Counted from the stretch's first letter, positions 3,726 to 21,926 are shown. The stretch: DNA of 32,000 nt from Alkalilimnicola ehrlichii MLHE-1 (GCF_000014785.1 NC_008340.1:2310001-2342000); one strand, 5' to 3'. Notes: a model not told the origin generated them from the sequence alone. Translations and numbers: made by a program.

Positions 3726-3739
3726 GGCCGCCCCGCACC

Positions 3740-5197
3740 TCAACCCAGTCCGTGGCGCCGCAGCTTGCGGTAAAGGGTCCGCTCACTCACCCCGAGCAGG
3801 CGGGCCAGGCTGGCCCGGTCGCCCTGATGCAGGGCCAGTGCCCGGCCCAGATAGTGCGCCTCCGCCTCCTCCAGGCTCAGCAGCTCGTCCTCCGGCAGCA
3901 CCGCAAGCCCCTGCCGCCCCCTGACCTCTGGTGACAGGTGCTCTGGCAGGATCTCCGGGCCGTCCGCCAGCAGGCTCGCACGCTCCAGGACATTGCGCAG
4001 CTCGCGGACATTGCCCGGAAAGTCATAGCCCTGGAGCTCCGCCAATGCCTCGTCGGAGAGATACCGCCCCTGGCCGTACTGCAGCCGGCGCAGGATGGCC
4101 TGACAGAGCAGCGGCAGGTCATCCAGCCGCGCGCGCAGTGGCGGCACATCGATGGGAAAGGTGGAGATCCGGTAGTAGAGGTCTTCGCGGAACTGGCCCT
4201 GCTCCACCATCCGCCGCAAGTCGCGGTGGGTGGCCGCCACGAGGCGGAAATCGGCCCGCCGCGGCTCGACACTGCCCACCCGGCGGAAGCTGCGAGTCTC
4301 CAGCAGGCGCAGCAGCTTGACCTGGAGGGCCAGGGGGATATCCCCCACCTCGTCGAGGAAGAGCGTCCCGCCCGAGGCCGCCTCCACCAGGCCGATCCGC
4401 GAGGAGACCGCACCGGTGAACGAGCCCTTCTCATGACCGAACAGCTCGCTCTCGAACAGGGTCTCGGTGAGCCCCGAGCAGTCCACCGGCACGAAAGGCG
4501 CCTCCTGGCGCAGGCTGGCCTGGTGCACGGCACGGGCCACCAACTCCTTGCCGGTCCCGGTCTCGCCCTGCAGCAGCACAGAGGCATCGCTGGGGGCGGC
4601 CCGGCTGATCAGCCCAAGCATCCGGTTGAAGGCGCGGCAGCGGCCGGTCAGCTCACCGCCGTTGGCCTGGGCACTGGCCACCGGCAGCCGGCGCAACACC
4701 TCAATAAAGAACTGCACCTGCCCGTCCGGCCCGGGGACCGGCCAGGTCTCCACATCCACGTGCTCCTGACCCTCAGGGCCATGATGGACGTGCAGCACCC
4801 GGTGCCGCCGCCCGGAGCGCAAGGACTCGCGCAGCGGACAGGCCTCACCGGCCTGGTCACAGGGGACGTTGTAGTGGTGGGAGACCTCGAAACAGCGCTG
4901 CCCCCGGTCGATGGGGGCATCGCCGTAGAGGCGTTGGTAGGCGTCGTTGGCCGCGACGATCACGTAGTCGAGGCCGATCAGGATGGCCGCCTCGTCAAAG
5001 GCCTCCAGCATCGCCCGCGCATCGGGCTGCCAGCGCCCGGTGCCCCCTGCCGTGCCCACCTGCTCCGGTAGCCGGCACTCACCCTCTTCCTTGAGCGGGC
5101 AGGGTTCCACCTCGGCATCCCGCAGGATGCATTGATCGGGGGCGTTGCGGGCACAGGGGCCACGAGGATCGTCACTCATGGCCCCATGATAGCCCAT
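3740..5197 (-). CDS. sigma-54-dependent transcriptional activator (Cys-rich N-terminus + PAS-like sensor, AAA+, Fis-type HTH)
   Basis: AAA+ motifs: Walker [15 protein letters not shown] (GAFTGA variant), Walker B LFLDEVG. C-terminal HTH: [21 protein letters not shown]. The track ORF extends to 5524 but would overlap cydB. ATG at 5197 sits 5 nt after GAAGGAGG and 17 bp downstream of the cydB stop. Confidence 0.88.
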
Positions 5198-5214
5198 TAC
5201 CCCCTCCTTCGGCC

Positions 5215-6216
5215 TCAGTGATAACCCTCGCCAGGGCGCACCTTGCCGCGGAAGACCCAGTAGGTCCAGGCGGTATACCCCATGACCACGGGCAGCAAGA
5301 GGAGCATGCCCACCAGCAGGAAGAGCTGGGCATCCGGGCTGGACGAGGCATCCCAGAAGGTGTGGTGCGGCGGCACCGCGTAGGGCCACATGCTGATCAG
5401 CAGACCCACGTAGAAGGTGGCAAACAGGGCCATGGCGGCAACGAAGGGCGTCCCCTCCTGGCGCTGCTGCAAGGCCCGCCACAACCAGTAGCTGACCAGC
5501 AGCGTCACCACCGGGAAGAGCCACAACCAGTTCAGGTTATCCAGCCACCGGCTCATGACCTCGGCATGGGCCAACGGGGTCCACAGGCTGACGATGACGA
5601 AGAAGGCCAACACGGCCAGGAGCGTACGGCTGGCGACCCGGCGTGCCCAGTCCTGCAGCTCCCCCTCGGTCTTCATGATCAGCCAGGTGGCGCCCAACAG
5701 CGCGTAGCCGGCCACCACGCCGAGACCGGTCATCACGACGAACGGCGTCAGCCAGTCCAGCGGACCGCCCACATAGGTGAAGCCTTCGGTCTCGAAACCC
5801 TGGATGTAGGCCCCGACCACGGCGCCCTGGGCGAAGGAGGCCACCCCGGAACCCAGGGTGAAGGCCCAGTTCCAGAAGGGCCGGGAACGGTTCGCCTTGG
5901 CCCGGAACTCGAACGCCACCCCGCGGAAGATCAAGCCCGCCAGAAGCAGGAAGACACCGATGTAGAGCGCCGGCAGAAAGACCGAGTAGACCAGCGGGAA
6001 GGCGCCCAGCAGGCCGGCACCACCCAGCACCAGCCAGGTCTCGTTGCCGTCCCACACCGGGGCCACCGAGTCCATCATCAGGTCACGCTCCTCCTCGCCG
6101 GGGGCGAAGGGATAGAGAATCCCCACGCCCAGGTCGAAGCCGTCGAGCAGGACGTACATGAACACGCCCAGCCCGATAATGGCAATCCAGACCAGAGTCA
6201 GATCAATCAATTCCAT
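5215..6216 (-). CDS. cydB: cytochrome bd-type quinol oxidase subunit II
   Basis: MELIDLTLVWIAIIGLGVFMYVLLDGFDLGVGIL...VAPVWDGNETWLVLGG are hallmark CydB motifs. ATG at 6216 is preceded by GGGAGG. The longer track ORF (to 6513) overlaps cydA and was trimmed. Confidence 0.9.
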   Translation of the reverse strand: MELIDLTLVWIAIIGLGVFMYVLLDGFDLGVGILYPFAPGEEERDLMMDSVAPVWDGNETWLVLGGAGLLGAFPLVYSVFLPALYIGVFLLLAGLIFRGVAFEFRAKANRSRPFWNWAFTLGSGVASFAQGAVVGAYIQGFETEGFTYVGGPLDWLTPFVVMTGLGVVAGYALLGATWLIMKTEGELQDWARRVASRTLLAVLAFFVIVSLWTPLAHAEVMSRWLDNLNWLWLFPVVTLLVSYWLWRALQQRQEGTPFVAAMALFATFYVGLLISMWPYAVPPHHTFWDASSSPDAQLFLLVGMLLLLPVVMGYTAWTYWVFRGKVRPGEGYH

Positions 6217-6223
6217 GGTGTTG

Positions 6224-7636
6224 TTACCTCCCGCTGGGCTGCGGCATCTCATCATCAAAAGTGGTACCGGCGGCGGACATCGGCCGCTTGGGGTGACCCC
6301 CTTCGCTGGGTGTCTCCACCTCAATCGCTTCCGGACCCTTGCGCACCACTCGGGTGACGTAATAGACGCCCGCACTGAAGACCACGGCGTAGACCGCCAC
6401 GTAGCCGATGAGCGAGAACAGGGCCATCCCCCCGGTAAGCGAGGGCGAGACCGCCTCCTCATACCGCATGATGCCGTGCACCACCCAGGGCATGCGCCCG
6501 ACCTCGGTGACAAACCAGCCGGACAGCACCGCCAGGAAGGGCGCGGGGATCATCCAGGAAAAGCCGCGCAGCAGCTTCTCAGACTCCCACAGGGTGCCAC
6601 GCCACTGCTTCCAGGCGCCCACCAGCGCCATCACGATCATCAGCAGGCCGATGCCCACCATGATGCGGAAGGCCCAGAAGACGATGGGCATATTGGGCCG
6701 GTCCTCCGGTGCCCAATCCTTCAGGCCGTGCACCTCGCCATCCAGGGAGTGGGTCAGGATCAGGCTGGCACCGTAGGGGATGCCGATCTCCATGAAGTTG
6801 CGCTCCTGCTCCATGCTCGGGATGGCGAAAAGCAGCAACGGCGCACCCGACTGGGTCTCCCAGGTGCCCTCCATGGCGGCCACCTTCTCCGGCTGATGCT
6901 CGAAGGTGTTCAGGCCATGGATGTCACCTACCACCAGCTGAGCCGGCGCAACGATGGCGAGCAGCACCAGGGTCATGCCCAGCGCCTTGCGCGACTCCAC
7001 CACCGCGCGGTCGCGGAGCAGATACCAGGCACTCACCCCCGCGACCACGAAACCGGCAGTCAGGAAGGAGGCCAATGCCATGTGGAAGAAACGCGGCCAG
7101 AAGGAAGGATTGAAGATCGCCTCCATCCAGGACGTTATCTGGAACACCCCGCCCTGAAGCTCAACGCCCGCCGGGGTTTGCATCCAGCTATTGGCCGAGA
7201 GGATCCAGAAGGATGAGATAAACGTCCCGATGGCCACCATGCAGGCCGCGAAAAGGTGTGTGCCCCGGGGCACTTTATTACGCCCGAAAAGCAGGATGCC
7301 CAGGAACACCGCCTCGAGGAAGAAGGCCGTGATCACCTCGTAGCTGAGGATAGGCCCAAGGAAATTGGCCGAGGCGTATGAGAACGCGCTCCAGTTCGTG
7401 CCGAACTGGAACGACATGACGATACCCGAAACCACGCCCATACCGAAGACCACGGCAAAGACCTGGGTCCAGAACTTGGCCAAGCGCTCGTACACGGGGT
7501 TGCCGGTGCGGTACAGCAGCCCCTCCAGGGCAGCGATGTACGATGCCAACCCGATGGTGAACACCGGGAATATGGCGTGGAAGGACACCACGAACCCGAA
7601 CTGTAGTCGGGACAGGAAAACCGGATCCAGCTCCAT
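6224..7636 (-). CDS. cydA: cytochrome bd-type quinol oxidase subunit I, short Q-loop (CIO-like length, ~470 aa)
   Basis: MELDPVFLSRLQFGFVVSFHAIFPVFTIGLA...GTNWSAF...EVITAFFLEAVFLG...NSWMQTPAG are CydA signatures. ATG at 7636 lies 6 nt after GGAGG. Its stop is 7 nt from the cydB start. Confidence 0.9.
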   Translation of the reverse strand: MELDPVFLSRLQFGFVVSFHAIFPVFTIGLASYIAALEGLLYRTGNPVYERLAKFWTQVFAVVFGMGVVSGIVMSFQFGTNWSAFSYASANFLGPILSYEVITAFFLEAVFLGILLFGRNKVPRGTHLFAACMVAIGTFISSFWILSANSWMQTPAGVELQGGVFQITSWMEAIFNPSFWPRFFHMALASFLTAGFVVAGVSAWYLLRDRAVVESRKALGMTLVLLAIVAPAQLVVGDIHGLNTFEHQPEKVAAMEGTWETQSGAPLLLFAIPSMEQERNFMEIGIPYGASLILTHSLDGEVHGLKDWAPEDRPNMPIVFWAFRIMVGIGLLMIVMALVGAWKQWRGTLWESEKLLRGFSWMIPAPFLAVLSGWFVTEVGRMPWVVHGIMRYEEAVSPSLTGGMALFSLIGYVAVYAVVFSAGVYYVTRVVRKGPEAIEVETPSEGGHPKRPMSAAGTTFDDEMPQPSGR

Positions 7637-7692
7637 TATCGACCTCCGTTGCAAAACTGCGATGCTGCAGCGAGCTGTTCGTCTGCAGCTTC

Positions 7693-10633: not shown

Positions 10634-11731
10634 GTGATTGGGGACCGCCGCGTCATCGCCTTCCACGATGCCCGAATGCTGGAGCACCGGCCGGACGTGC
10701 AGGATGCGTATCAGCCGGGCCGCCTGGCCACCCGGGTCAAGCGCATGCTGGACGGGCTCACCATCCAGTGGAACTACCCGGAGCATCCAGGGCGCCTTAC
10801 CGCCATCATGGACCTGCTGGTCCGCGAGCCGGTCCCCGGGGTGACCTTCCGCACTGGCCGGGCCGCCACCCCGGCAGAACTGGGCCGGGTGCATACCCTC
10901 TCCTATCTGGAGACCATCTACGCCCTGCGCGGCAAGCACGCCTGGCTGGATGTGGACACCACTGCGGTCTGCCCGGGCAGTGTGGACGCCGCCGAGGTGG
11001 CGGCCGGCACCGCCATTGCCGCGGTGGAGGCGGTGGTACAGGGTGACGCTGAGGCCGCCTTCGCCCTGGTGCGCCCCCCGGGGCACCACGCCGAGGCGGT
11101 GCGCGCCCGCGGTTTTTGCCTGTTCAACAATGTCGCCGTGGCGGCCGCCCACGCCCAAGCGGCACTGGGCTGCCAGCGGGTGCTGATCGTGGACTGGGAC
11201 GTCCACCACGGCAACGGCACCCAGGACATCTTCCGCGCCGACCCGGATGTGCTCTTTTTCGACACCCACCGGGCCTCGCCCTTCTACCCGGGCTCGGGCC
11301 GACTGGAGGAGGTCGGTCACGGCCTGGGGGAAGGCACCACGGTCAACGTCCCGTTACCGCCCGGGGCCGGTGATGCCGCGCTCCTGCGGGCCTTCCACGA
11401 AATCCTCGTCCCCGCCGCTGACTGGTTCCAGCCCGACCTGGTGCTGGTCTCGGCCGGCTTCGACCCCCACCGGCTGGACCAGGCCCTGAATATGAGTTAC
11501 GAGGGCTTCGCCGCCTTGACCGCAGTGCTGCAGGAGATCGCCACAAGGCACGCCCAGGGGCGGCTGGCCTTCGTGCTGGAAGGGGGCTACAACCTGGAGG
11601 CGCTGTCCCGGGGGGTACGGACCGTGCTGGAGGTGCTGGCCGGCGCCGAACTCGAACCCCTGCAGGCGGCCGGAATGGAAGAGCTGGAACAGGCCATCGC
11701 CTTCCACCGGGATGCCTTCCAGGCGCCCTGA
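10634..11731 (+). CDS. histone-deacetylase-family (AcuC/HDAC-like) Zn-dependent deacetylase
   Basis: [35 protein letters not shown] and the GGYN motif. GTG start is preceded by AAGGAG at 6-nt spacing. Confidence 0.9.
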
Positions 11732-11783
11732 AGGCCGGGCGGGGCTACCCCGTAGGCGGATTCCACCACGCGCACCCCGGGGG

Positions 11784-12926
11784 CTATAGCCCCTCGCGCA
11801 CCACGGCCCGGCGCAATGCGCGCTGGCGGCGCAGGATACTGCGAAAGGCGGCGCGCAACGCCGCGTACTCCCCCCGGCTCAGTGCCGCCACCGGGACCTG
11901 GTTGTGCAGCGGGCGGCCGGCGTCGATGGCCTCGGCGTGCAGGCGGGCGCGGATACCGGCGACAACCTGGTAGCCCTGTATCAGCGCGCCGGCCTCACCG
12001 CGGTCCAGCGTGCCCGCCCCGGCGGCCTGCTGCAGGCGCTCCAGGGTATGGTGGGCGGGCAGGCCCGCGCGCACGGCATAGACCCGGGCCAACTGCACCA
12101 ACGGCAGCAGCCCGCCCTGTTTCAGATCCACCCGGCCCGCATTCGCACCCCACCAGGGGGTCCAGACCCGCCCCAGGCCATGCCACGGTGGGCGCGGCCG
12201 CGTCGCCCCATCGCTCAGCCGGGCGAGGAACCGGCGGTTGCTCGCCGCCCGCTCCAAGGCCTCCCGGCGTACGGGCTCAAACAGGGCCGGATCGCCGGCC
12301 ACCACCCGCAGATCCAGGTAATGGGTGGCCAGCATCACCGCCTTGCGTCCCGGGGCCTCAATGACTGTGAGCAGCGCCCGCCGCCAACTGCCGACGCTGC
12401 GCCGCCAATCACCATTCGCCGGACTGACGCCGCCCGGGCAATGCGGCAAGCCACAGGCCGCCAGCCCTTCCGTCACCCGCCCCGCCAGGCGCCGGTACCA
12501 GTCGTCGGCCCCCGGCGGGAGATCATCCCCATAGACCAGGGCATTATCCTGATCCGTGTGCACGGTCTGCTCACCCCGCCCCTGGGAGCCGCACGCGAGC
12601 CAGGCCCACGGCCCCGGCGCCGGCGTCCCCATTTCCGCCTCCGCGAGGACAATCAACCGCCGGGTCAGGGCGTCCACCCAACCGCTGACGATCCGGGCCT
12701 GGGTCACCGCGTCCCTGCCGGAGCGCTGCAGCGCGGCCTGACCCTCGGGGAAGCGGCCCGCAACGGCCTGGATGGCCGCCAGGTCCGATGCCTGCTCCAG
12801 AGCCCGCCCCAAACCCGTGCCCTCCGCACCGGTCCCTGCCGTTGCCCCGCTACCGGCACCTGATTCACTGGCGCCCGGAGCCCCTTGGTCCTGCGTCTCA
12901 TCCACAACACCCACCTCCCTGAACAC
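11784..12926 (-). CDS. DUF294-type putative nucleotidyltransferase (no sensor domains) with low-complexity Gly/Ala N-terminus
   Basis: LACGSQGRGEQTVHTDQDNALVY is a pol-beta-type GS-x-GR-x-E...DxD motif. The C-terminal half is collinear with the DUF294_C region of the two paralogs at 15293 and 20469. The start (GTG 12926) is uncertain. Confidence 0.75.
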   Translation of the reverse strand: MFREVGVVDETQDQGAPGASESGAGSGATAGTGAEGTGLGRALEQASDLAAIQAVAGRFPEGQAALQRSGRDAVTQARIVSGWVDALTRRLIVLAEAEMGTPAPGPWAWLACGSQGRGEQTVHTDQDNALVYGDDLPPGADDWYRRLAGRVTEGLAACGLPHCPGGVSPANGDWRRSVGSWRRALLTVIEAPGRKAVMLATHYLDLRVVAGDPALFEPVRREALERAASNRRFLARLSDGATRPRPPWHGLGRVWTPWWGANAGRVDLKQGGLLPLVQLARVYAVRAGLPAHHTLERLQQAAGAGTLDRGEAGALIQGYQVVAGIRARLHAEAIDAGRPLHNQVPVAALSRGEYAALRAAFRSILRRQRALRRAVVREGL

Positions 12927-13064
12927 GGCACTGCCCGGCAGCGCCCCTGGGCTGCAGCTTACTCACCTTTCAGGGGCTTCCGCTATGGCCCCACGGCGCT
13001 GCGTACCACCCCGAATCGGCACAGGACGGCGCCCAGCCCCCCCGGTGGTCCGCCCGCCGCTCAT

Positions 13065-13089
13065 AAAAAAAGCCCGCCGGATGGCGGGC
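13065..13089 (-). terminator. rho-independent terminator after the symporter gene
   Basis: The minus strand reads GCCCGCC-atcc-GGCGGGC followed by TTTTTTT, 67 nt past the symporter stop codon. Confidence 0.8.
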
Positions 13090-13107
13090 TTAAGCGTTCA
13101 GTCGGGT

Positions 13108-13136
13108 GGTTGCCGCACCCGGGGGGTGCGGCAACC
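13108..13136 (-). terminator. additional 13-bp GC hairpin directly after the symporter stop
   Basis: ggttgccgcaccc-ggg-gggtgcggcaacc. There is no U-tract. It may be a stabilising or attenuating stem preceding the true terminator. Confidence 0.45.
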
Positions 13137-13155
13137 CAATCGCAGAAGTTAGCGA

Positions 13156-14937
13156 TCAGTCGGCGCGCGGCACACGCACGCTCTCCACCAGCTTCTGGAT
13201 CTCGGCCGGCGGCGGCGCGGTCATCTTCGCCACGGCGAAGGAGACAATGCCGTTCGCCACGGCGCCGATCACACCGAATGCGGCCGGGTTGATACCGAAC
13301 AGCCAGTACTCGGCGGTGTCCGGCAGCAGGGCCAGCTGCGGGAAGAACAGGAAGCCCTTGTAGGTGAAGACGTAACCCAGGGTCACGATCAGACCCGCCA
13401 GCATGCCGGCGATGGCCCCTTCGCGGTTCATCTTCCGGTAGAAGATGCCCATCATCAGGGTCGGGAAGAGGCTGGCCGCGGCGAGACCGAAGGCCAGCGC
13501 CACCACCTCGGCCGCGAAGCCTGGTGGGTTCAAGCCCAGATACCCCGCGAAGATAATGGCGACGGCCATGGAGATACGGGCCGCGAGCATCTCGTTCTTC
13601 TCGCTGATATCGGGTTTGAACACGCCTTTGAGCAAGTCGTGCGAAACCGCCGAGGAGATGGCCAATAGCAGACCGGCCGCGGTGGACAGCGCCGCCGCGA
13701 TACCACCCGCCGCCACCAGGGCGATCACCCAGGTCGGCAGACCGGCGATCTCCGGGTTGGCCAGCACGATGATGTCACGGTCCAGGTTGGTGATCTCCGA
13801 GCCTTCCCAGCCCCACTGCTCGCGGGCCATCTGGTCGAACTCCGCATTGCCGTCGTTGTAGTACTGGATACGGCCGTCGTTGTTCTTGTCCTCCCACTGC
13901 AGCAGACCGGTCTGCTCCCAGCGGTACATCCAGTCGGGCAGGTCCTCATACCGGGTGTGGGCCTCAGCCTCACCGATGCTGTGGCGGTCCACCAGCACGG
14001 TGTCGAGCAGGTTCCACATCGCCATGGCACCCACAGCCGGGGCGGTGGTGTAGAGCAGGGCGATAAAGACCAGGGACCAGCCGGCGGACTTACGCGCGTC
14101 GCGGATACGCGGCACGGTGAAGAACCGGATGATCACGTGCGGCAGACCTGCGGTACCGATCATCAGGGAGATGGTCAGCAGGAACATGTTGAGCATGTTG
14201 AAGCCGCCCTCGGTGGCCGAGTAGGCCGCAAAGCCCAAGTCCACCAGGGTCTGGTCCAGCGCCTCCAACAGATAGGTGTCGGAGCCGGCGAGGGTGCTGC
14301 CGAGACCGATCTGCGGGATCGGCACGCCGGTGATGGCGATGGCGATGAAGACCGCCGGGACGGTGTAGGCGAAGATCATCACGCAGTACTGGGCGATCTG
14401 GGTATAGGTGATACCCTTCATACCGCCGAACACAGCGTAGATGAACACCACCACCATGCCGGAGATCAGGCCCACGGTCAGCGGCACCTCCAGGATGTTG
14501 GAGAAGGCGATACCGACGCCGCGCATCTGGCCGATAACGTAGGTGATGGAGATGGCCAGCAGGCAGATGACCGCAATCACCCGCGCCGTCTTCGAGTAGA
14601 ACCGGTCGCCGATGAACTCGGGCACCGTGAACTTACCGAACTTACGCAGGTAGGGGGCCAGCAGCAGGGCCATCAACACGTAGCCACCGGTCCAGCCCAT
14701 CAGGAAGGCGCCACCCGTAAAGCCCAGGAAGGCAATCAGGCCGGCCATGGAGATGAAGCTGGCGGCGGACATCCAGTCAGCGGCCGTGGCCATGCCGTTG
14801 GCGACGGGGTTGACCCCCTTGCCGGCCACGTAGAACTCGCTGGTGCTACCGGTGCGGGCCCAGATCGCGATACCGATGTAGAGCGCGAAGGTGAGACCCA
14901 CCACGGTCAGGTTGAGTATCTGTTGAGATCCTTCCAT
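13156..14937 (-). CDS. sodium:solute symporter (SSS) large subunit, ActP/VC_2705-like
   Basis: 593 aa and polytopic. The N-terminus EFYVAGKGVNPVANGMATAADWMSAASFISMAGL is typical of the acetate/monocarboxylate SSS clade. It follows a DUF4212 small-subunit gene by 12 bp. Confidence 0.9.
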   Translation of the reverse strand: MEGSQQILNLTVVGLTFALYIGIAIWARTGSTSEFYVAGKGVNPVANGMATAADWMSAASFISMAGLIAFLGFTGGAFLMGWTGGYVLMALLLAPYLRKFGKFTVPEFIGDRFYSKTARVIAVICLLAISITYVIGQMRGVGIAFSNILEVPLTVGLISGMVVVFIYAVFGGMKGITYTQIAQYCVMIFAYTVPAVFIAIAITGVPIPQIGLGSTLAGSDTYLLEALDQTLVDLGFAAYSATEGGFNMLNMFLLTISLMIGTAGLPHVIIRFFTVPRIRDARKSAGWSLVFIALLYTTAPAVGAMAMWNLLDTVLVDRHSIGEAEAHTRYEDLPDWMYRWEQTGLLQWEDKNNDGRIQYYNDGNAEFDQMAREQWGWEGSEITNLDRDIIVLANPEIAGLPTWVIALVAAGGIAAALSTAAGLLLAISSAVSHDLLKGVFKPDISEKNEMLAARISMAVAIIFAGYLGLNPPGFAAEVVALAFGLAAASLFPTLMMGIFYRKMNREGAIAGMLAGLIVTLGYVFTYKGFLFFPQLALLPDTAEYWLFGINPAAFGVIGAVANGIVSFAVAKMTAPPPAEIQKLVESVRVPRAD

Positions 14938-14949
14938 TGTTCTATAGCC

Positions 14950-15234
14950 TCAGTCTTCGTAGACGTCGTATTCGCGATCCAGTTTGTTCATGCGCCAGGC
15001 ATAGAAGAAGATGATCACGAGGAACACGTAGATCGAGCCTTGCTGCGCGAACCAGAACCCGAGCGGATAGCCGCCGATGCTGAAGTTATTCAGCCAGTCG
15101 GCGAGCAACACGCCGAGTACCAGCGAGACAAACGCCCAGACGACCAGGCAACCCCCAATGATCTTGAGGTTCTTTCGCCAGTATTCGCCTCTGTCTTTTG
15201 TCACCTGATTTTCCGAATCAGACATGGATGACAC
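14950..15234 (-). CDS. DUF4212 small subunit of Na+/solute symporter
   Basis: 94 aa with two TM helices. It carries the motif GGYPLGFWFAQQGSIYVF...YAWRMNKLD characteristic of the family that pairs with VC_2705-type symporters. GAGGAG lies upstream of the ATG. Confidence 0.85.
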   Translation of the reverse strand: MSSMSDSENQVTKDRGEYWRKNLKIIGGCLVVWAFVSLVLGVLLADWLNNFSIGGYPLGFWFAQQGSIYVFLVIIFFYAWRMNKLDREYDVYED

Positions 15235-15292
15235 TCCTCTTTCCTAGGATTAAAGGATGATTCGGCAATTCCCTTTGCAGTGCTTACGGCCG

Positions 15293-17284
15293 TTACAGTT
15301 GATACTCCGAAGTGAGTTTTGATTGTAGTTTCCTCGCCTCGCGAAATGCCTCCTTGAGAATCTTTTTATCCAGTTCATTGAGTTCGTTGGGTGAAACATG
15401 ATTGCTGAGCGGCTTCCCGGCCGCTGCCTGCTCCTGGTGCTGCCGGGTGCGCAGCACCTGAATATAGTGGTAGGCGATAACCCACGCCTCCACATCCCCC
15501 CGGACCAGGGCACCGGCCTCGGCCGCCTGCTCCAGGCGGTCCACCGTGTTGGTGGCCGGGAGCCGGTGGGCCAGGGAAAAGATACGCGCCGCGTCCACGA
15601 AGGGCGTGACGCCGTTGAGCTTGAGGTCGATGACGTTGCGCTGATCACCGTGGGTTCGGGTGACGAAATCGCGGATCACCCCCAGCGGGGGCCGGTTGCG
15701 CAGGGCGTTGGCCGCCATCTGCTTGCGGAACCGGCTGTTGCGTGAAGTCCGCTCCAGCAACCAGGTCCGAAGCCCCTCGGCCCCGCCGGTGGGCCCGTGG
15801 ATGACCCGGAAGTCGAAAAAGATGGCGGCCTTGAGCAGGTGCTCCGGTGTCCCCTGGTCGATCCAGCGCTTGAAGCGCTGCTGCCACTCCTCCAGCGACA
15901 GGCAGCACTCCGGGTTGCCGGCCATGATGTTGCCGGGGCAGAGGGGATAGCCGCAGCGGTCCAGGGCCTGGTTGATGCGCTGGGCGACCGGCACCAGCCG
16001 CGCACGGATGGCGTCGGCATCGGGGCCGTCGTCATCGACCATGAACAGGATGCCGTTGTCCTGGTCGGTTTTCAGGGTCTGTTCCTGTCGCCCTTCGCTG
16101 CCGAAGGCGATCCAGCAAAAGTCGATATCGGAGACGTCATCATCGGCCTCGGCCAGGCAGAGCTGGATGATGCGCTCACCGATATGATCGTTGAGCAGGG
16201 TGATCATCTGCATGATCTGCGCGACCTTGACCCCCTGGTCGATCATCTGCCCGACCAGGCGGTGGATGTCCGCCTGCAGCGGCGCCAGGGCCTCGACACT
16301 GGCCGCCCGACGGATGCTGCGGGTGAGATTGACCAACCCCACCCGTTGCAGCGTGAACAGGTCGCGCTCGGAGATCACCCCCTGCAGGCGGCCCCGCTCC
16401 ACCACACAGACGTGGTGGATGCCGTGCTGCGCCATGACCATGGCCGCCTCGAAGGCGAAGGCCGACCGCGGCATGGATACCGGGTCGGAGGTCATCACCT
16501 CGCGCATGGGGCGATCGAGCGGCACCTGGGGCAGGGCCACCCGGCGCAGCAGGTCGTGCAGGGTAAAGACCCCCAGTGGGCGAAGCCGGTCATCGGTGAC
16601 GACAATGCTCCCCACCCGCTGGGTATCCATGGCCTGCAACGCTTCTTTTATTGTGGTCTCCTCCCGGCAGGTCACCGGTTCCCGCCGCAGCCGCTCGCCC
16701 AGCGGGATGTCCAGCGAGGTGTCGCCGTTGCCCAGCCCCTTCACCTCCTGGCTCTGATACTGGGCCAGTAGTTGGTCCAGCATGGTGGAGAGGCGCCGGG
16801 TGCAGAAGGCATGAAACTCCTCCGACACGTGCAGCAAATGGGTAAAGTCGCCTTCCTCGAGTTCGAGGCAGGTGGTCTCCTCCAGGGCGCGATGGATGGT
16901 CCGCGCCGGCTTGCCGGTCACCAGGGCGCCCACCGGGAAGCACTCACCCGCGCGCAATTCCCAGACGTTGCCCGCCTCTTGATCGTCACCCCGCGGCGAC
17001 TCCCCGCCCACCCGGCCGGAACGAATGATAAACAGCCGGTCGACAGGGCCGCGGTCGGGATGGGTCAGCGCCTCGCCCCGGGCATAGACACGGATGGCCA
17101 AGCGGTCCACCAGATAGCCCAAGTGCTCATCGGTCATGTCGTCGAAGGGCGCATACTGGCGAAGAAAGACCCGCACGTCGCCCCGATCGGACGCTGCGCC
17201 CTGCTCCGCCTTGTTGTGTTGGTCGTCGCCCATCTTTATGCCACTGCGCGCTGAAAGTACGGCAGGGAGACTTGCAGAAGTCAT
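15293..17284 (-). CDS. cNMP-binding + CBS pair + DUF294 nucleotidyltransferase signal-transduction protein
   Basis: An N-terminal CAP-effector-like fold (RGEALTHPDRGPVDRLFIIRSGRV...ELRAGECFPVGAL) is followed by two CBS motifs, then IAFGSEGRQEQTLKTDQDNGILF and a DUF294_C tail. An alternative start at 17233 is possible; neither start has a clear SD. Confidence 0.85.
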   Translation of the reverse strand: MTSASLPAVLSARSGIKMGDDQHNKAEQGAASDRGDVRVFLRQYAPFDDMTDEHLGYLVDRLAIRVYARGEALTHPDRGPVDRLFIIRSGRVGGESPRGDDQEAGNVWELRAGECFPVGALVTGKPARTIHRALEETTCLELEEGDFTHLLHVSEEFHAFCTRRLSTMLDQLLAQYQSQEVKGLGNGDTSLDIPLGERLRREPVTCREETTIKEALQAMDTQRVGSIVVTDDRLRPLGVFTLHDLLRRVALPQVPLDRPMREVMTSDPVSMPRSAFAFEAAMVMAQHGIHHVCVVERGRLQGVISERDLFTLQRVGLVNLTRSIRRAASVEALAPLQADIHRLVGQMIDQGVKVAQIMQMITLLNDHIGERIIQLCLAEADDDVSDIDFCWIAFGSEGRQEQTLKTDQDNGILFMVDDDGPDADAIRARLVPVAQRINQALDRCGYPLCPGNIMAGNPECCLSLEEWQQRFKRWIDQGTPEHLLKAAIFFDFRVIHGPTGGAEGLRTWLLERTSRNSRFRKQMAANALRNRPPLGVIRDFVTRTHGDQRNVIDLKLNGVTPFVDAARIFSLAHRLPATNTVDRLEQAAEAGALVRGDVEAWVIAYHYIQVLRTRQHQEQAAAGKPLSNHVSPNELNELDKKILKEAFREARKLQSKLTSEYQL

Positions 17285-17349
17285 GCCAGAAATTGCGAGC
17301 CCAGCAATCAGCGGCTTGGCGCGGGGGTGCAGCGGGCGGTGTCACGCAA

Positions 17350-17410
17350 GGTAACAAGCTGTCACCGTTGGTGACGCGAACCCTTGCCACGGTAGGTAAC
17401 GGAGGGTAAC
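17350..17410. promoter_or_regulatory. repeat-rich intergenic segment (possible internal promoter/operator)
   Basis: Perfect palindrome GTCACC-gtt-GGTGAC (17361-17375) flanked by three GGTAAC hexamers (17350, 17395, 17405) in the 131-bp gap between the sensor-exonuclease and DUF294 genes. Confidence 0.3.
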
Positions 17411-17415
17411 GGGGA

Positions 17416-19560
17416 TCAGGTGCGGGAGGACTCCATCCCCTCGCCCTGTGCACTGAAGACCGCGGAGCGGTGGCGGAGTTCCGCGGCCATCCGCGAGGCC
17501 TTCATCACCTCGCCGAACGTCTGGTAGCCCTGCGCCTCCAGCCGCTCAATGATACGAACCAGCAGCTCGGCGGTGGCCAGGGTATCGCCCAGAGCGGTGT
17601 GACGGCCGGTGATGGCAATGCCGTAGCGGTCGCACAGCGCGTCCAGCGAGTGGTCCTCCTCATCACCGTCCAGCAGGGCCGAGAGCAGCAGGGTGTCGAG
17701 CACCGGATTATCGAAGCGCACCCCGGCCTCGCGCTCCTTCATGCTGATGAACTTCATATCGAAGGCGGCATTGTGCGCCACCAGGACGGCGTCCCCCACG
17801 AAGGATTTAAACTGGGGCAGCACCACCTCGATGGGCGGCTTGTCCTGCACATCGTCGTCGGTGATGCCGTGGAAGCGCACGGAGCCAGGCGGGATGGGGC
17901 GTCCCGGATTGATGATTCGGTCAAAGGTCTCACCGGTCAGTACCCGGCCGTTCACCACCCGGACCCCGGCGATGGAGATGATCTCATCGCCCCCCTCGGG
18001 GTTCAGCCCGGTCATCTCGCAATCGAACACCACGAAACTCAGGTCGGCCAGCCGCCGGGCCGCCAGGGCCTCGTCCCCGGCATACTCCTGCATCAGCCCG
18101 AAGTCGTAGAACTCGGGCCGTGCCGGCAGCCGCTCCTCCTCCTCCATGAACTGGGGCCGGCGGGACATCATCAGCGGCAAGCGCAACAAGGCCTGCCCCT
18201 CGCGCCTGCCCGTCTGGCTCCAGGGCTCACAGCCATGCCGCTCCAGGATATCCCCCAGGTGCTGGCCGCCCACCTCATCGCCGCCGCAGGGGATCGCCAT
18301 CCAGCGGTTCAGCTCGCCGGTAGTGATCGGCTCGCCCTGCCAGCTGATGTCCACGTACACCCGGGTATCGCCCAGCAACGCCTCCACATCGAAGGCCGTC
18401 GCGCCGGTATGGTCATGCACCTGTCGCACCAGGCAATCCAGCGCCAGCATCAGTGAAAGGCTGTCGCCATGGACCCAGAGCGGCAGCCCCACCAGGGTCA
18501 ACCGGACGTCCGGGAGGTCCATCAGCCGCTGCTGCAGGCAGTTGACCAGATCCCCCACGAAGACGTCGGCCATGGGCCACCGCCCCAGGTTGTAGCCCCG
18601 GATCTGGTGGGCCAGCTCGTCGATCTGCTCGCTCAGCTTCTCACTCTCGCTGCGAATGACGGCATCGAACGACTGGCGCTCCTCCGGCTTCATGTCCGGA
18701 TAGCTGGCCACGGTCTCCGCGGCGGCGCGCAGGTTGCCCACCACGCCACGCAGGTCGCGGGTGAGCGCCCGGCGCACGGCGTCACCCTGGGCCAGTCGGG
18801 TGAGATCGCTGGAGATGTCCACCAGGGTGATGAGATAACCGGTAATCTGGCCCTGGCTGTTCTGAATCAAGGCCATGCGCCCATGGAACATGCGCTGGGC
18901 ATCGGCGCTGGTGCAGACGAAGGGGGCGGAGAGTTCCGTCGGCAGGTCCACATCGCCCTTGTGGCGGCGCTCCAGGCGCTCCAGGGTGTGCTGCACCGGC
19001 GGACTGGAGAGCACGTTGAACAGGGGGCGGCCGAGACCGATGGCCTCCGGGTGTCCGAGGATAGTCCCGGCCGCCCGGTTGTAGAGCATGATCTGGTGCT
19101 GGCGGTTGCAGACCAGCACCCCTTCGCTGAGTCCCTGCAGGATGGTCTCCAGCCAGGTCTTCTGCTCGGAGAGTTCGGCGGTGGCCGATTGCATGGCCTT
19201 GCGGGTCTCTCGCCGCGACTTGCGCAACGCATCGGCCAGTGACTCCACCGTGGTCGGCAGGTCCCCGAGGGCATGGCGCCGGGGGAGGATGATCTCCTGG
19301 TTCGCCTGGCGGGATTCCAGCAGCGCCCGGACCCCGCGGCTGAGCTTCCGGGAGGGCCGCATCAACAGGCGCTCCAGCAAGAGCCAGCTGACCAGCCCGA
19401 CGGCCACCACCCCAAGTACCCCGAGGCTGGCCACCAGCGCGGTGTTATCGGTGCCCCCCGGCTCGCTGGGCGTGACGCTGTAGACCGCGAGCACCACTAT
19501 GGCGGCGGCGACGGCAACTGCGCCCGTCAGGACCCAGGTGACGAAGGGCCGCTGCCGCAT
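17416..19560 (-). CDS. membrane HAMP-PAS sensor with degenerate histidine-kinase-like core fused to C-terminal DEDDh (DnaQ/PolIII-epsilon-like) 3'-5' exonuclease
   Basis: Two N-terminal TM helices with a ~13-aa loop, then a HAMP-length linker and a PAS-like segment (LSEGVLVCNRQHQIMLYNRAAGTILG). The H-box position reads LTRDLRGVV, where HisKA has SHELRTPL. There are no clear N/G boxes. Exo motifs are intact: FDCEMTG, VAHNAAFDMKF, HTALGDTLATAEL. Confidence 0.85.
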   Translation of the reverse strand: MRQRPFVTWVLTGAVAVAAAIVVLAVYSVTPSEPGGTDNTALVASLGVLGVVAVGLVSWLLLERLLMRPSRKLSRGVRALLESRQANQEIILPRRHALGDLPTTVESLADALRKSRRETRKAMQSATAELSEQKTWLETILQGLSEGVLVCNRQHQIMLYNRAAGTILGHPEAIGLGRPLFNVLSSPPVQHTLERLERRHKGDVDLPTELSAPFVCTSADAQRMFHGRMALIQNSQGQITGYLITLVDISSDLTRLAQGDAVRRALTRDLRGVVGNLRAAAETVASYPDMKPEERQSFDAVIRSESEKLSEQIDELAHQIRGYNLGRWPMADVFVGDLVNCLQQRLMDLPDVRLTLVGLPLWVHGDSLSLMLALDCLVRQVHDHTGATAFDVEALLGDTRVYVDISWQGEPITTGELNRWMAIPCGGDEVGGQHLGDILERHGCEPWSQTGRREGQALLRLPLMMSRRPQFMEEEERLPARPEFYDFGLMQEYAGDEALAARRLADLSFVVFDCEMTGLNPEGGDEIISIAGVRVVNGRVLTGETFDRIINPGRPIPPGSVRFHGITDDDVQDKPPIEVVLPQFKSFVGDAVLVAHNAAFDMKFISMKEREAGVRFDNPVLDTLLLSALLDGDEEDHSLDALCDRYGIAITGRHTALGDTLATAELLVRIIERLEAQGYQTFGEVMKASRMAAELRHRSAVFSAQGEGMESSRT

Positions 19561-19982
19561 TACATACTTCCGGCGATCGGCGTCGGTGCGGAGGCCAGCG
19601 GTGTATCGCGGCCGGCCTTCATGTAGTGCGCCACCCGCCGGAGCAGATCCCGGGTGCTGAATGGCTTGGTCACGTAATCGTCCGCGCCCAGCGCCAGGCC
19701 CTTCTCACGCTCGGTTTGGCGCCCACGGGCCGTGAGCATGATAACGCCCGCATCCCGGCCCCCCGGCACCTCGCGTAACCGCTGGCAGACCTCGTAGCCG
19801 TCCTCACCAGGCAGCATCAGGTCGAGCAGGATCACTCGGGGCCGATGGACCCGCGCCAGTTCCAGGGCCTGGCATCCGTCGCAGGCCACATGCACCGGAT
19901 AGCCCTCCGCCTGCATCAGAAAACGCAGGGAGAGGACAATGTTGGGCTCATCGTCGACAACGAGAACGGAATGGGACTCCAT
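19560..19982 (-). CDS. stand-alone response-regulator receiver (CheY-like)
   Basis: VLVVDDEPN, ILLDLMLPGEDG, IMLTA and VTKPF together form a complete phospho-acceptor pocket. GGGAGGAG lies upstream of the ATG. The TAA stop shares one base with the ATG of the next gene (TAATG). Confidence 0.9.
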   Translation of the reverse strand: MESHSVLVVDDEPNIVLSLRFLMQAEGYPVHVACDGCQALELARVHRPRVILLDLMLPGEDGYEVCQRLREVPGGRDAGVIMLTARGRQTEREKGLALGADDYVTKPFSTRDLLRRVAHYMKAGRDTPLASAPTPIAGSM

Positions 19983-20048
19983 GGCTCCTCCCGAAACCTT
20001 ACGCCGCCCGGGCCCTGCTTGGGGGAACCCGTTGGTTCAGCGATTATC

Positions 20049-20078
20049 GCTATAGTTTCTGGCTATAGTTTTCCAGAA
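20049..20078. promoter_or_regulatory. tandem 10-bp direct repeat plus overlapping inverted repeat in divergent promoter region
   Basis: GCTATAGTTT occurs at 20049-20058 and 20062-20071 (13-bp period). TTCTGG-N10-CCAGAA spans 20057-20078. The site is ~70-95 bp upstream of the receiver gene and ~125 bp upstream of the 83-aa ORF. Confidence 0.35.
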
Positions 20079-20201
20079 AACATAGCACAGCGGGCTTACC
20101 GCCGTCATGCCGAGCCCTCCACCCCGAGCGCTTGATCAGGCGGGCGTGACTGCCTATTCTGGTCGCCCACTGAGGCGGCGCGGGCGCGCGGAGCAATCAC
20201 T

Positions 20202-20453
20202 ATGGTGCAGGAAAAGAAGCGCAGTGTTATACCACCGGATCGCGGTCTACGCATCCTGATGAAAATCGGTGTTCCTATCGGGGCCATCAGCCTGCTATCG
20301 CTGTGGCTGGCCTATTTCACCGACACCCCGATGTTGATGCCGCTGTTTCTCATTACCGCGCTCCTGGCCTTCGCCATCGGCATGGCGTACAACATTCGCC
20401 TGGTCATCCTGATGGTTCGGCAAAAGCGCCAGGCGGAGCGCCAGCAACCCTAG
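20202..20453 (+). CDS. small hypothetical membrane protein (2 predicted TM helices)
   Basis: 83-aa ORF with basic ends and two hydrophobic stretches (IGVPIGAISLLSLWLAYF, LMPLFLITALLAFAIGMAY). GC is locally lower than in neighbouring genes. I recognise no homology. Confidence 0.5.
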   Translation: MVQEKKRSVIPPDRGLRILMKIGVPIGAISLLSLWLAYFTDTPMLMPLFLITALLAFAIGMAYNIRLVILMVRQKRQAERQQP

Positions 20454-20468
20454 GCCGCCTGCGCCCCT

Positions 20469-21926
20469 TCAGATATCGCCGACCAGGGTCTTACGCAGAC
20501 GCCTGAGCAGCCCCTGGGAGGTCTTCATGCTGCGGACCAACTGATCGTGTTCCCGGCGGGTGAGGGTCTCCGGCGGCAGGTGCGGCCGGGGCGCGCGGCC
20601 CGCCGCCACCTCCTGGACCTGGTGGGCGAGCAGCAGGTGGCACATGAAGCCATGGGCGTGGGTCAGCGCGTCCAGGTCATTGGTGTTCAGCGCCCCCAGT
20701 TCATGGAGCCGCCTCATGCGCTCCCGGGTGGCGGTCGCCTCCACCCCATGGGCCAACGCATATAGGCGCACCGCCTCGACGATGGGCATGATGCCGTGGC
20801 GTTTGAGATTGATCTCGCCCTGGTGGATCGAGTCATCGGACTCCGTGACCAAGCGGTCAAACCACCCCAGCCCCACCTCTTTCGGCGAGTCGGCCAGCAT
20901 CAACGCCCGCATGAATCCCGGTGAGCCGCCCACCCGCTCCACCATCAGGCGGCGCAGCGACTGCCCGAGGGCAACGTCCCCGCAGACCACCCGAAAGTCC
21001 AGCAACACACTGGCGTTGAGCAGTACCTGGGGACGGCGGCTGCGCATCCAGTAGTCGAGTTGTGCCAGCCACTGGCTGTGGCTCTTCCGCCAGAGTGGGT
21101 TGCGGGCCATGACGTGCCCCTGGCAGTAGGGGATCCCCACCTGGTCCAGATCCCGGTTGAGCCGGGCGGCGAACTCCGCGAAATAGGCATCCACCGCGGT
21201 GTGCTCGGCGTCCGGGTAGTCGGCGATGATCAGGCCATTGTCCTGATCCGGCCCGAGGAAGCTCTCACGCCGGCCTCCCGAGCCCATCACCATGACCGCG
21301 AAGGCCGCCGGCGGCCGCCCCCAGCCATCCAGCGCCAGACCCTCCACGGCGTTGGCAGTGAGCTGGCGGTAGATGTCCTCGTTGATTCCGGACAGCAGGG
21401 CCTGGATCTCGGGGGCATCCAGCCTGTCCGCCAGCAGGTCGCCGGCCAGGTCGGACTGGGCCTGCCGGATGGCGCGCAGGCCGGATACCGTCGCCGACTG
21501 GGCGAACCGGTCCAGGCGCTCGAGGTAGCGGGGCAATCCCGCACCCAGGGCGTCGGCCCGGGACAACAGGCCAATCACCCGCCCGGCATCGTCCACCACC
21601 GGCAGGTATTGCGCACGGGTGACACGCATCACCCCCACCAGGCGGTACAACCGCTCATCGTGCCGCGCCACCCGCACCGGCCCGGTCAGCACCTCACTTA
21701 CCGGCGTCTCCGGCGCCACCCTGAAGGCCACGCGATGGGCCACGTCGCGGCCACTCAACTGCCCGACCACCCGCCCCCCGCCGCGGGTGATCACGGCGCA
21801 ATTGCTTCCCGTCTCCGCGAGCCGCGCAATGACCTTTTCGCAGGGGGTGGTACGGTCACAGACCACCACGGCCGGACGCATGGCGTCCTTGGCAGTGCGC
21901 AGGAAGAGCTCCGAATACCCAGCCAC
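20469..21926 (-). CDS. CBS pair + DUF294 nucleotidyltransferase protein
   Basis: An N-terminal CBS pair (MRPAVVVCDRTTPCEKVIARL...VVGQLSGRDV; YLPVVDDAGRVIGLLSRADAL) is followed by VMVMGSGGRRESFLGPDQDNGLII and a DUF294_C tail collinear with the other two paralogs. Confidence 0.85.
   Translation of the reverse strand: MAGYSELFLRTAKDAMRPAVVVCDRTTPCEKVIARLAETGSNCAVITRGGGRVVGQLSGRDVAHRVAFRVAPETPVSEVLTGPVRVARHDERLYRLVGVMRVTRAQYLPVVDDAGRVIGLLSRADALGAGLPRYLERLDRFAQSATVSGLRAIRQAQSDLAGDLLADRLDAPEIQALLSGINEDIYRQLTANAVEGLALDGWGRPPAAFAVMVMGSGGRRESFLGPDQDNGLIIADYPDAEHTAVDAYFAEFAARLNRDLDQVGIPYCQGHVMARNPLWRKSHSQWLAQLDYWMRSRRPQVLLNASVLLDFRVVCGDVALGQSLRRLMVERVGGSPGFMRALMLADSPKEVGLGWFDRLVTESDDSIHQGEINLKRHGIMPIVEAVRLYALAHGVEATATRERMRRLHELGALNTNDLDALTHAHGFMCHLLLAHQVQEVAAGRAPRPHLPPETLTRREHDQLVRSMKTSQGLLRRLRKTLVGDI

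Follow-up and report, generated by a model that had tools for sequence, protein, structure and literature searches.

Organization of the locus

We have analyzed a stretch of 32 kb from the genome of Alkalilimnicola ehrlichii MLHE-1 (hereafter the window, whose coordinates are used throughout), on the minus strand of which five genes join a receiver, an exonuclease of the DEDDh type attached to a sensor region, a nucleotidyltransferase of the DUF294 family and a two-subunit sodium/solute symporter. A listing of open reading frames (ORFs) and scans with Pfam and NCBIfam recovered all five as co-directional genes, with the coordinates and domains ascribed to them in an initial annotation made from the sequence alone. 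Two further DUF294 genes on the same strand, one with CBS domains (21926-20469) and one bare (12926-11784), belong to the same system, which spans about 11784-21926, because close relatives hold all of these genes in one cluster. From 5' to 3' on the minus strand, the features are as follows:

20469-21926, minus: CBS-DUF294-DUF294_C nucleotidyltransferase paralog, 485 amino acids (aa) (Pfam); outside the coordinates of the initial annotation
19983-20201, minus: non-coding, likely promoter region 5' of the receiver gene, with a 13-nt tandem direct repeat at 20044-20069 that contains GCTATAG twice
19560-19982, minus: stand-alone receiver, 140 aa (PF00072)
17416-19560, minus: membrane-anchored pseudo-histidine kinase with DEDDh exonuclease, 714 aa (Pfam, AlphaFold2 model, Foldseek)
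17285-17415, minus: intergenic region with two GTYAC-N5-GTRAC palindromes and GTTACC half-sites, probable operator and internal promoter (repeat search)
15293-17284, minus: nucleotidyltransferase with cNMP_binding, two CBS, DUF294 and DUF294_C domains, 663 aa as the longest ORF (Pfam, AlphaFold2)
14950-15234, minus: DUF4212 symporter small subunit, 94 aa as the longest ORF (PF13937, TIGR03647)
13156-14937, minus: VC_2705-family sodium/solute symporter large subunit, 593 aa (TIGR03648, PF00474)
13065-13137, minus: GC hairpin followed by a rho-independent terminator (stem and T-run)
11784-12926, minus: bare DUF294-DUF294_C paralog without sensor domains, 380 aa (373 aa in the public call), 3' of the terminator (Pfam)

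The receiver and exonuclease genes share a TAATG stop/start overlap at 19560, read directly in the sequence, and the following gaps measure 131, 58 and 12 nt, as annotated initially, if the longest ORFs are taken. The public gene call starts the nucleotidyltransferase 17 codons later (ATG at 17233, 646 aa) and the DUF4212 protein 3 codons later (ATG at 15225, 91 aa), which gives gaps of 182, 67 and 12 nt. The hairpin and the terminator that had been said to close the unit are both present, the former (13108-13136) with perfect arms of 13 nt, the latter 65 nt past the symporter stop codon, with a stem of 9 pairs, 7 of them G-C (13091-13070), and a TTTTTAT run. Both symporter subunits score well above the family cut-offs (large subunit, TIGR03648, 821.7 bits against 320.75, with PF00474 matching as well; small subunit, TIGR03647, 116.1 bits against 26.05, and PF13937, 121 bits), and their genes lie 12 nt apart; the pair belongs to the two-subunit VC_2705 family.

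A histidine-kinase look-alike fused to a DEDDh exonuclease

The 714-aa protein shares 100% identity with one from A. ehrlichii MLHE-1, by which the origin of the window was established. In it, Pfam finds a PAS domain (residues 137-250) and an RNase_T domain (510-667, 140 bits), and no significant family in residues 1-144 and 250-497; neither HisKA nor HATPase_c is detected in residues 250-497 even at E values up to 10. An AlphaFold2 model built on 79 homologs (mean predicted local distance difference test, pLDDT, 86.5) comprises a first transmembrane (TM) helix (3-29), joined by a loop of about 10 residues to a long helical TM2/HAMP-like segment (40-143), a PAS domain (147-248), a DHp-like hairpin (250-320), a degenerate α/β CA-like domain (331-465) and the exonuclease (508-680). 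When compared with the PDB by Foldseek, the first 470 residues match full-length kinases, including WalK (9a5d), VicK (4i5s), YF1 (4gcz), ThkA (3a0r) and HK853, with E values from 1e-20 to 1e-10, and also the pseudo-kinases NifL and DivL (4q20). The modeled protein exhibits the overall HAMP-PAS-DHp-CA fold of a sensor histidine kinase; this kinase-like nature is seen only in the fold and in pairwise alignment, as Pfam gave no family there.

A scan of one genome per species yielded more than 463 relatives of this protein; the counts of loci given here cover the best 80, in which partner genes were sought with the window proteins as probes. Pairwise alignment to a bona fide kinase of the partner type places R268 opposite the phospho-acceptor His of the motif THELRTPL. 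The equivalent position is occupied by R, E, D, T, Q or K, and by His in none of 196 family members; Glu or Asp, with E dominant, is found in 65 of the 80 species-level loci, and Arg in the Alkalilimnicola clade. An acidic residue at the position of the lost phospho-His could mimic phospho-His. Inspection of the CA-like domain by eye revealed no N-box Asn, DxGxG or GxGxG motif. The protein previously read as a PAS-exonuclease is, as judged from the model, a complete HAMP-PAS-DHp-CA histidine-kinase look-alike without the phospho-acceptor His, fused to an intact DEDDh exonuclease. Lacking the His and equipped with only a degenerate ATP-binding domain, the kinase-like part is predicted to be incapable of autophosphorylation.

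The catalytic residues of the exonuclease, D513 and E515 (Exo I, DxE), D601 (Exo II), and H654 and D659 (Exo III, H-x4-D), are invariant in 79 sequences, and the closest structures retrieved by Foldseek are the exonuclease domain of PolC and E. coli ε (34% identity, root mean square deviation, rmsd, 1.5-2.4 Å), together with the DinG exonuclease. Just before this domain lies an invariant RPEFYDF motif (481-487), found only in the long form of the protein. The N-terminal module occurs almost exclusively in this architecture of about 700 aa (236 clusters at 50% identity, E ≤ 1e-30).

The receiver and its probable kinase

The receiver matches PF00072 with 96.5 bits (cut-off 30.2, E 1.3e-27), and its translation contains the acidic pair (D10, D11), the phospho-acceptor Asp (D54), the conserved Thr/Ser (T84) and the Lys (K106) of its class. 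In 70 of 79 related loci, the gene immediately upstream of that for the exonuclease encodes a homologous receiver. As the exonuclease carries a pseudo-histidine kinase, the receiver is most likely the input of the latter.

No gene with HisKA or HATPase_c was found anywhere in the window. Elsewhere, a gene of about 900 aa that combines an SLC5/SSF domain with HisKA and HATPase_c is co-directionally adjacent to the receiver-exonuclease pair (54 of the 80 loci; for example 12415-15141 in locus L005 and 6535-9255 in L047), either preceding it (39 loci) or following it (15 loci), which suggests from gene order that the SLC5-type kinase would be the obvious kinase for the receiver in those genomes. 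The clustering of ORFs from high-GC loci produced many antisense artefacts (clusters 1, 5, 6 and 8), and one of them, cluster 6, led to the kinase gene, to which it is antisense. In Natronocella acetinitrilica (locus L085, 8547-12127), the whole cluster is present without a receiver gene, and the stop codon of the CBS-DUF294 gene overlaps the start of the exonuclease gene.

The DUF294 nucleotidyltransferases

The 663-aa protein matches PF03445 with 165 bits and PF10335 with 161 bits. In an alignment that includes both extra paralogs (A2), residues G395, S396, D407, D409 and D491 are invariant, so that the pattern G[SG]-x(9-13)-DxD is followed by a third carboxylate and by the C-terminal helical domain. 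All three paralogs in the window keep the G-S...D-x-D...D catalytic columns and differ in their sensors: cNMP and CBS domains, CBS domains only, or none. Most related loci contain a single DUF294 gene, and pairs of a bare and a sensor-bearing copy occur in about 12 other loci.

A sequence comparison with PDB chains found counterparts for the CBS and cNMP domains alone, the DUF294 core having none. The AlphaFold2 model (pLDDT 88), on the other hand, has as its best Foldseek matches the two nucleotidyltransferase domains of GlnE, AT-C (3k7d) and AT-N (1v4a), and the AMPylation domain of DrrA from Legionella, in complex with Rab8a (6yx5), over 340-405 aligned columns (about 400 for the GlnE domains and 340 for DrrA); its CBS and cNMP domains match their usual relatives. 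None of the top 50 matches of DUF294 is a CCA-adding enzyme, a poly(A) polymerase, a cGAS/CD-NTase or an OAS. The modeled fold would favor a protein hydroxyl as the acceptor, as in GlnE and DrrA, over the short oligonucleotide signal that had been offered initially as one of two options for the product. A role in anti-phage defense of the CBASS kind was considered and rejected: PADLOC gives no match for the DUF294 paralogs and only a generic DEDDh match for the exonuclease, and the genomic context is metabolic.

Conservation across genomes and fusion proteins

The 80 loci span the Alpha-, Beta- and Gammaproteobacteria, Nitrospirota, Chloroflexi, Acidobacteriota, Actinobacteria and Desulfobacterota. 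A DUF294 gene is present within 10 kb of the exonuclease gene in 61 of them (34 of the 41 with full flanks), an SSS symporter gene in 45 and a DUF4212 gene in 29, and an AMP-forming acyl/acetyl-CoA synthetase gene is found in 25. The recurrence of DUF294 and DnaQ-like exonuclease genes beside carboxylate symporters, noted in the initial annotation, is borne out in these loci. Gene order and orientation vary between loci, with the content kept, which argues for selection on co-location rather than inherited synteny.

In two relatives, L084 and L085, whose exonucleases are 70% and 66% identical to that of A. ehrlichii, all of these genes form one co-directional cluster in the order cNMP-CBS-DUF294, DUF4212, SSS, bare DUF294, CBS-DUF294, receiver (where present) and exonuclease; the bare DUF294 ortholog follows the symporter gene and the CBS-DUF294 ortholog lies directly upstream of the receiver or the exonuclease. 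The order in the window is a cyclic rotation of this cluster, by which two blocks can be defined: one of CBS-DUF294, receiver and exonuclease, and another of cNMP-CBS-DUF294, DUF4212, SSS and bare DUF294.

The two enzymes also occur in a single polypeptide. Locus L014 encodes a protein of 715 aa composed of RNase_T, two CBS domains, DUF294 and DUF294_C, and fusions of RNase_T, CBS and DUF294 are found in at least 120 sequence clusters, an architecture common to the 120 best homologs without exception (identity 49-99%), in which both active sites are retained. Of three genomes sampled, two have the fusion gene divergently adjacent to the DUF4212-SSS genes and one has it near an AMP-binding synthetase gene. 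Because such fusions with both catalytic sites intact exist, the exonuclease and the nucleotidyltransferase appear to be functionally linked, as had been supposed, and the domain architecture supports the view that they act together, like the paired activities of GlnD and GlnE.

Several candidates were discarded in the course of this comparison. The exonuclease domain of the long form is about 34% identical to that of the fused form and to ε alike, so that identity does not set the long and fused forms apart as a special clade. A "fusion" ORF of 1231 aa (L047, 9637-13332) is a long-ORF artefact with no RNase_T match in that frame, and P0385 (1154 aa; pseudo-kinase, partial RNase_T, CBS and DUF294), which stands alone and whose match to the exonuclease is truncated, was not counted as evidence.

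Two groups of small ORFs accompany these genes in other genomes. An ORF of about 220 aa (cluster 24; 14817-15482 in L035 and in six other loci from Rhodocyclales) follows a full-length DUF294 gene; it exhibits only weak similarity to the DnaQ-like models PRK07740 and PRK09145, and its Exo I motif, D-I-V in place of D-x-E, is apparently without the glutamate, so that those loci hold the long sensor exonuclease and possibly a degenerate short one. In loci with the RNase_T-CBS-DUF294 fusion, two or three ORFs of 100-128 aa without a Pfam family (L086, 557-1700; L088, 3077-4245; L087, 6208-6861) are located after the symporter gene or ahead of the fusion gene, and may be extra conserved components of the fusion variant.

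Transcription units and a candidate operator

The gap between the exonuclease and nucleotidyltransferase genes contains two GTYAC-N5-GTRAC palindromes (17341-17355 and 17361-17375) and additional GTTACC half-sites. These are the only two matches to the pattern in the 32 kb, where 0.03 would be expected. In 88 loci (1.54 Mb) the pattern occurs 13 times, and 10 of these sites immediately precede the orthologous nucleotidyltransferase/DUF4212-SSS unit in loci of the Ectothiorhodospiraceae clade (among them L083, 12190-12224; L084, 2472-2486; L085, 3174-3188; L027, 5114-5128; L029, 5188-5202), the position being kept although the gene upstream of the unit differs. The 5-bp-spacer geometry is the same as in published examples of ACTU, the inverted repeat of CrbR, with a different sequence. 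On these grounds, the palindromes probably mark the operator and an internal promoter for the genes of the nucleotidyltransferase and symporter. An OmpR-type two-component pair is divergently adjacent in L085.

The five genes had been taken for a single operon. The conserved operator in the 131-nt gap weakens that reading, and makes it likely that there are two transcription units instead, one of receiver and exonuclease and another of nucleotidyltransferase, DUF4212 protein and symporter. No terminator was found in the gap, so read-through from the first unit is possible. A scan for sigma-70 promoters between 11500 and 22500, which includes the region upstream of the receiver gene, found none, and a scan of the whole window with Rfam found no RNA family, hence no riboswitch or known small RNA offers an explanation.

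The heptamer GCTATAG occurs five times, against 0.63 expected, and only one of 100 shuffles reaches five; all copies fall within the locus. Two (20049-20055 and 20062-20068) are in the 13-nt tandem repeat upstream of the receiver gene, one (14942-14948) is inside the 12-nt junction between the DUF4212 and symporter genes, and the heptamer is also found as the palindromic GCTATAGC (11783-11790) at the stop codon of the bare DUF294 gene.

Relationship to known systems

The enzymes closest in fold to the nucleotidyltransferases are GlnE and DrrA. In GlnE, the glutamine synthetase adenylyltransferase, and GlnD, the PII uridylyltransferase, which both modify proteins reversibly by nucleotidylylation, opposing activities of addition and removal are placed under the control of metabolite sensors. 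DUF294 shares with GlnE the fold of the nucleotidyltransferase and of the helical substrate-binding domain, as well as the G-S...D-x-D...D motif. The removing activity, however, is provided by a second nucleotidyltransferase domain in GlnE and by an HD domain in GlnD, whereas the partner in A. ehrlichii is a DEDDh exonuclease; the sensors are also different (ACT domains or PII binding there, cNMP and CBS domains here), and neither glutamine synthetase nor PII is implicated. In the DrrA/SidM-SidD pair of Legionella, where the AMPylation domain of DrrA is the one that matches DUF294, writer and eraser have separate folds, that of SidD being a PP2C-like phosphatase and not DEDDh; the target of that pair is a host GTPase.

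The kinases found beside the receiver in 54 of the 80 loci resemble the SLC5/STAC kinases CbrA, CrbS/MxtR and RpuS, which govern uptake of carboxylates and amino acids and expression of acs, in having an N-terminal SSF/SLC5 domain followed by HisKA and HATPase_c. Unlike those, which act on DNA-binding regulators, the adjacent kinase (about 908 aa) is partnered with a stand-alone receiver and a pseudo-kinase-exonuclease. Within the window itself we found neither an SLC5 kinase nor a LuxR-type regulator of the CrbS/CrbR kind. The pseudo-kinase finds its nearest parallel in DivL of Caulobacter, a protein with a histidine-kinase fold that lacks the phospho-acceptor His and has a stand-alone receiver, DivK, as its partner. 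DivL is a kinase repurposed to sense a phosphorylated receiver (PMC4211667), and the flow of information proposed here would likewise be the reverse of the usual, the receiver acting on the kinase-like protein. In DivL a Tyr takes the place of the His, and its target is another kinase, CckA, whereas in the family described here R, E or D is found at that position, the output is a fused exonuclease, and docking of the receiver is only predicted.

The genes PP_0354 and PP_0353 of Pseudomonas putida KT2440, which correspond to Pflu5625 and its neighbor and to PA3233/PA3232 next to actP-yjcH in P. aeruginosa, are the closest counterpart: a cNMP-CBS-DUF294 protein is paired with an exonuclease of the RNase_T type and tied to a monocarboxylate symporter and to acetate/pyruvate metabolism. 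There, however, reports describe the exonuclease simply as a member of the RNase_T family and mention no sensor part, and the symporter is ActP with YjcH under transcriptional control by CrbR; in A. ehrlichii the symporter is of the DUF4212/VC_2705 type, the exonuclease has a TM-HAMP-PAS-pseudo-kinase sensor and a receiver partner, and there are three nucleotidyltransferase paralogs. Pflu5625 (cNMP-CBS-nucleotidyltransferase) is reported to belong to the CrbS/R regulon and to be without a deletion phenotype (PMC5715377). In P. putida, MxtR/ErdR directly targets the operon composed of pp_0354 (nucleotidyltransferase) and pp_0353 (exonuclease) (PMC9927547). Deletion of pp_0353 impairs growth on pyruvate, as does deletion of actP-I, while the pp_0354 mutant grows normally (PMC9927547). 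This pattern, in which a mutant without the putative eraser is as defective on pyruvate as one without the transporter and absence of the putative writer does not affect growth, fits a nucleotidyltransferase that inhibits and an exonuclease that relieves.

A link to carboxylate uptake had been presumed from the gene neighborhood, and beside the pyruvate defect (PMC9927547) it has support from fitness data (bioRxiv 10.1101/072470), in which DUF4212 and symporter genes are needed for use of lactate or D-alanine and, in Shewanella amazonensis and P. stutzeri, are cofit with a neighboring RNase T-domain gene; the genes in question, Sama_1522/1523 and Psest_0346/0347, belong to the same TIGR03647 + TIGR03648 two-subunit family as the symporter of A. 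ehrlichii. That no biochemistry has been assigned to the DUF294/exonuclease pair, as the initial annotation had it, is still the case in papers up to 2026, when a preprint calls the function of PP_0354/PP_0353 unclear. In the open-access literature we found no paper on the pseudo-kinase form, on its receiver and SLC5-kinase partners, or on the fusions. The gene association has thus been recognized before, while the pseudo-kinase architecture, the receiver and SLC5-kinase partners, the layout with three paralogs, the fusions and the GlnE/DrrA-like fold appear to be undescribed.

A proposed mechanism and its alternatives

What the analysis shows is a conserved gene set with intact catalytic sites, the folds described above and, in many genomes, the fusion of exonuclease and nucleotidyltransferase. 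We propose, with a probability of roughly 0.4, that the locus is a module for post-translational control of the DUF4212/VC_2705-type Na+/monocarboxylate symporter by reversible nucleotidylylation; the protein nature of the substrate, the direction of the regulation, the docking of the receiver and the identity of the target are what we infer. The three DUF294 enzymes would attach a nucleoside monophosphate (NMP) to a hydroxyl of the symporter or of a protein that controls it, and the mark would damp carboxylate uptake. Writing would be gated by CBS domains, as adenylate sensors, on two of the enzymes and by a cNMP sensor on one of these. The ε-like DEDDh domain, held at the membrane by two TM helices in a kinase-shaped dimer, would hydrolyze the phosphodiester and restore uptake. 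In the dead kinase, which would serve as an input device, the PAS domain would read a ligand and the DHp-like hairpin would dock the phosphorylated stand-alone receiver in the manner of DivL and DivK; the receiver would be phosphorylated by a kinase encoded outside the window, in most related loci by the adjacent histidine kinase with its transporter-like SLC5 part. The genes would be expressed as two transcription units, with that of the nucleotidyltransferase and symporter under its own palindromic operator. The more specific proposal, that the DEDDh "exonuclease" is a protein de-nucleotidylylase that erases the NMP marks made by DUF294 and is switched by a dead kinase reading receiver phosphorylation from the SLC5 kinase, is a tentative one, on which we would not bet at even odds. 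The general idea of a writer and an eraser, already voiced in the initial annotation, gains support from the GlnE/DrrA fold, the fusions and the P. putida phenotypes, and is unproven.

A number of points weigh against this proposal. We know of no substrate, product or modified residue, and, to our knowledge, removal of NMP from a protein by a DEDDh exonuclease would be without precedent. Structural similarity to GlnE and DrrA is no proof of a protein substrate, and the closest structural relatives of the exonuclease are the DNA proofreading domains of ε and PolC, to which it is 34% identical. The three DUF294 paralogs could supply both writer and eraser, like the two domains of GlnE, leaving the exonuclease in another role. 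The kinase for the receiver is not within the window, and Natronocella has no receiver gene altogether, hence the receiver is dispensable in some lineages; in 7 of the 41 full-flank loci neither DUF294 nor a symporter is nearby, therefore the receiver/exonuclease pair can work without them in cis. Finally, the phenotypes seen in P. putida are slight, and the exonuclease studied there is the short form without a sensor.

Among the alternatives, control at the level of RNA survives best, although we regard it as doubtful. The DEDDh enzyme would be a regulated 3'-5' exoribonuclease acting on a specific transcript or small RNA, such as the symporter or acs mRNA, DUF294 would tail that RNA or act separately, and the module would set the expression of the symporter and not its activity. 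Degradation of mRNA has been the speculation of Henriquez et al., RNase T and Orn are DEDDh enzymes (and RNase_T is the Pfam name of the domain), and the Pol-β superfamily of nucleotidyltransferases includes RNA-tailing enzymes. DUF294 and DUF294_C, however, match GlnE and DrrA rather than poly(A) or CCA enzymes, the exonuclease is nearest in structure to DNA proofreaders, a tether of two TM helices is odd for a general RNase, and neither an Rfam RNA nor a conserved structured RNA was found in the window.

Less credence can be given to a division of labor in the style of GlnE, in which AT-C adds AMP and AT-N removes it. Opposing DUF294 paralogs would then both write and erase, and the receiver, pseudo-kinase and exonuclease would form a separate, nucleic-acid branch of the same SLC5-kinase pathway. 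Both the window and L083-L085 retain three intact paralogs that differ in their sensors, pairs of bare and sensor-bearing copies recur in about 12 other loci, both GlnE domains are among the top structural matches, and the receiver-exonuclease pair stands without a nearby DUF294 gene in some loci. The single DUF294 gene of most loci speaks against this rather unlikely arrangement, as does the widespread exonuclease-CBS-DUF294 fusion, which argues that exonuclease and nucleotidyltransferase are an obligate pair.

Improbable, in our opinion, is the nucleotide messenger of the initial annotation, a short linear or cyclic oligonucleotide made by DUF294 and degraded by the exonuclease, as by a cyclase/phosphodiesterase pair. 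DEDDh enzymes such as Orn do degrade dinucleotides derived from second messengers (review PMC9779919), and sensor domains on both enzymes would be typical of second-messenger enzymes; yet no CD-NTase or OAS is among the top 50 structural matches, DUF294 has no PADLOC/CBASS match, and no candidate receptor or effector is conserved in the related loci. That there is no joint system at all, the exonuclease being an accessory of DNA repair or proofreading (it is 34% identical to E. coli ε and PolC-exo at an rmsd of 1.5-2.4 Å, and some sources label it DNA polymerase III epsilon) and the neighborhood inherited synteny without a shared function, is very hard to reconcile with an association that outlasts rearrangements across at least eight phyla, with the gene fusions, with an exonuclease that is a direct MxtR/ErdR target with a carbon-source phenotype, and with its membrane anchor and pairing with a two-component system.

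Neighboring genes

A hydrophobic ORF of 83 aa (20202-20453, plus strand), without a Pfam family, lies between the CBS-DUF294 and receiver genes; it is called by public pipelines in A. ehrlichii and in L083 (9098-9349), a relative that is 87% identical, and is absent from L084 and L085. A gene of the histone-deacetylase family (AcuC-like; 10634-11731, plus strand) is convergent with the bare DUF294 gene. Deacetylases of the AcuC type reactivate acetylated acetyl-CoA synthetase in Bacillus; the gene is not adjacent in L084 or L085, and its position may be a coincidence. Farther away, the regions 2667-5524 and 5215-7654 encode an EAL-domain protein, a PAS-containing sigma-54 activator and subunits I and II of cytochrome bd oxidase, for which we found no evidence of a tie to the locus.

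Significance

The DUF294/exonuclease pair is among the genes that depend most strongly on MxtR/ErdR (CrbS/CrbR) in Pseudomonas, it is present in many phyla, and its biochemistry has been an open question since at least 2017. This question is now made testable by a transferase of the GlnE/DrrA type, a partner exonuclease with which it frequently forms one polypeptide, mutant phenotypes that fit an inhibitor and a reliever, and a membrane-tethered pseudo-kinase form accompanied by a receiver and an SLC5 kinase. Should the enzyme act on RNA instead, it would still be a new signal-gated membrane RNase. If the proposed mechanism is true, the locus would provide a way of reversing protein AMPylation or UMPylation by a new chemistry, a new class of two-component output, in which an enzyme is carried on a pseudo-kinase in place of a transcription factor, and a post-translational brake on the uptake of short-chain carboxylates, which would matter for acetate overflow, for pathogens that consume the short-chain fatty acids of their hosts, and for strain engineering.

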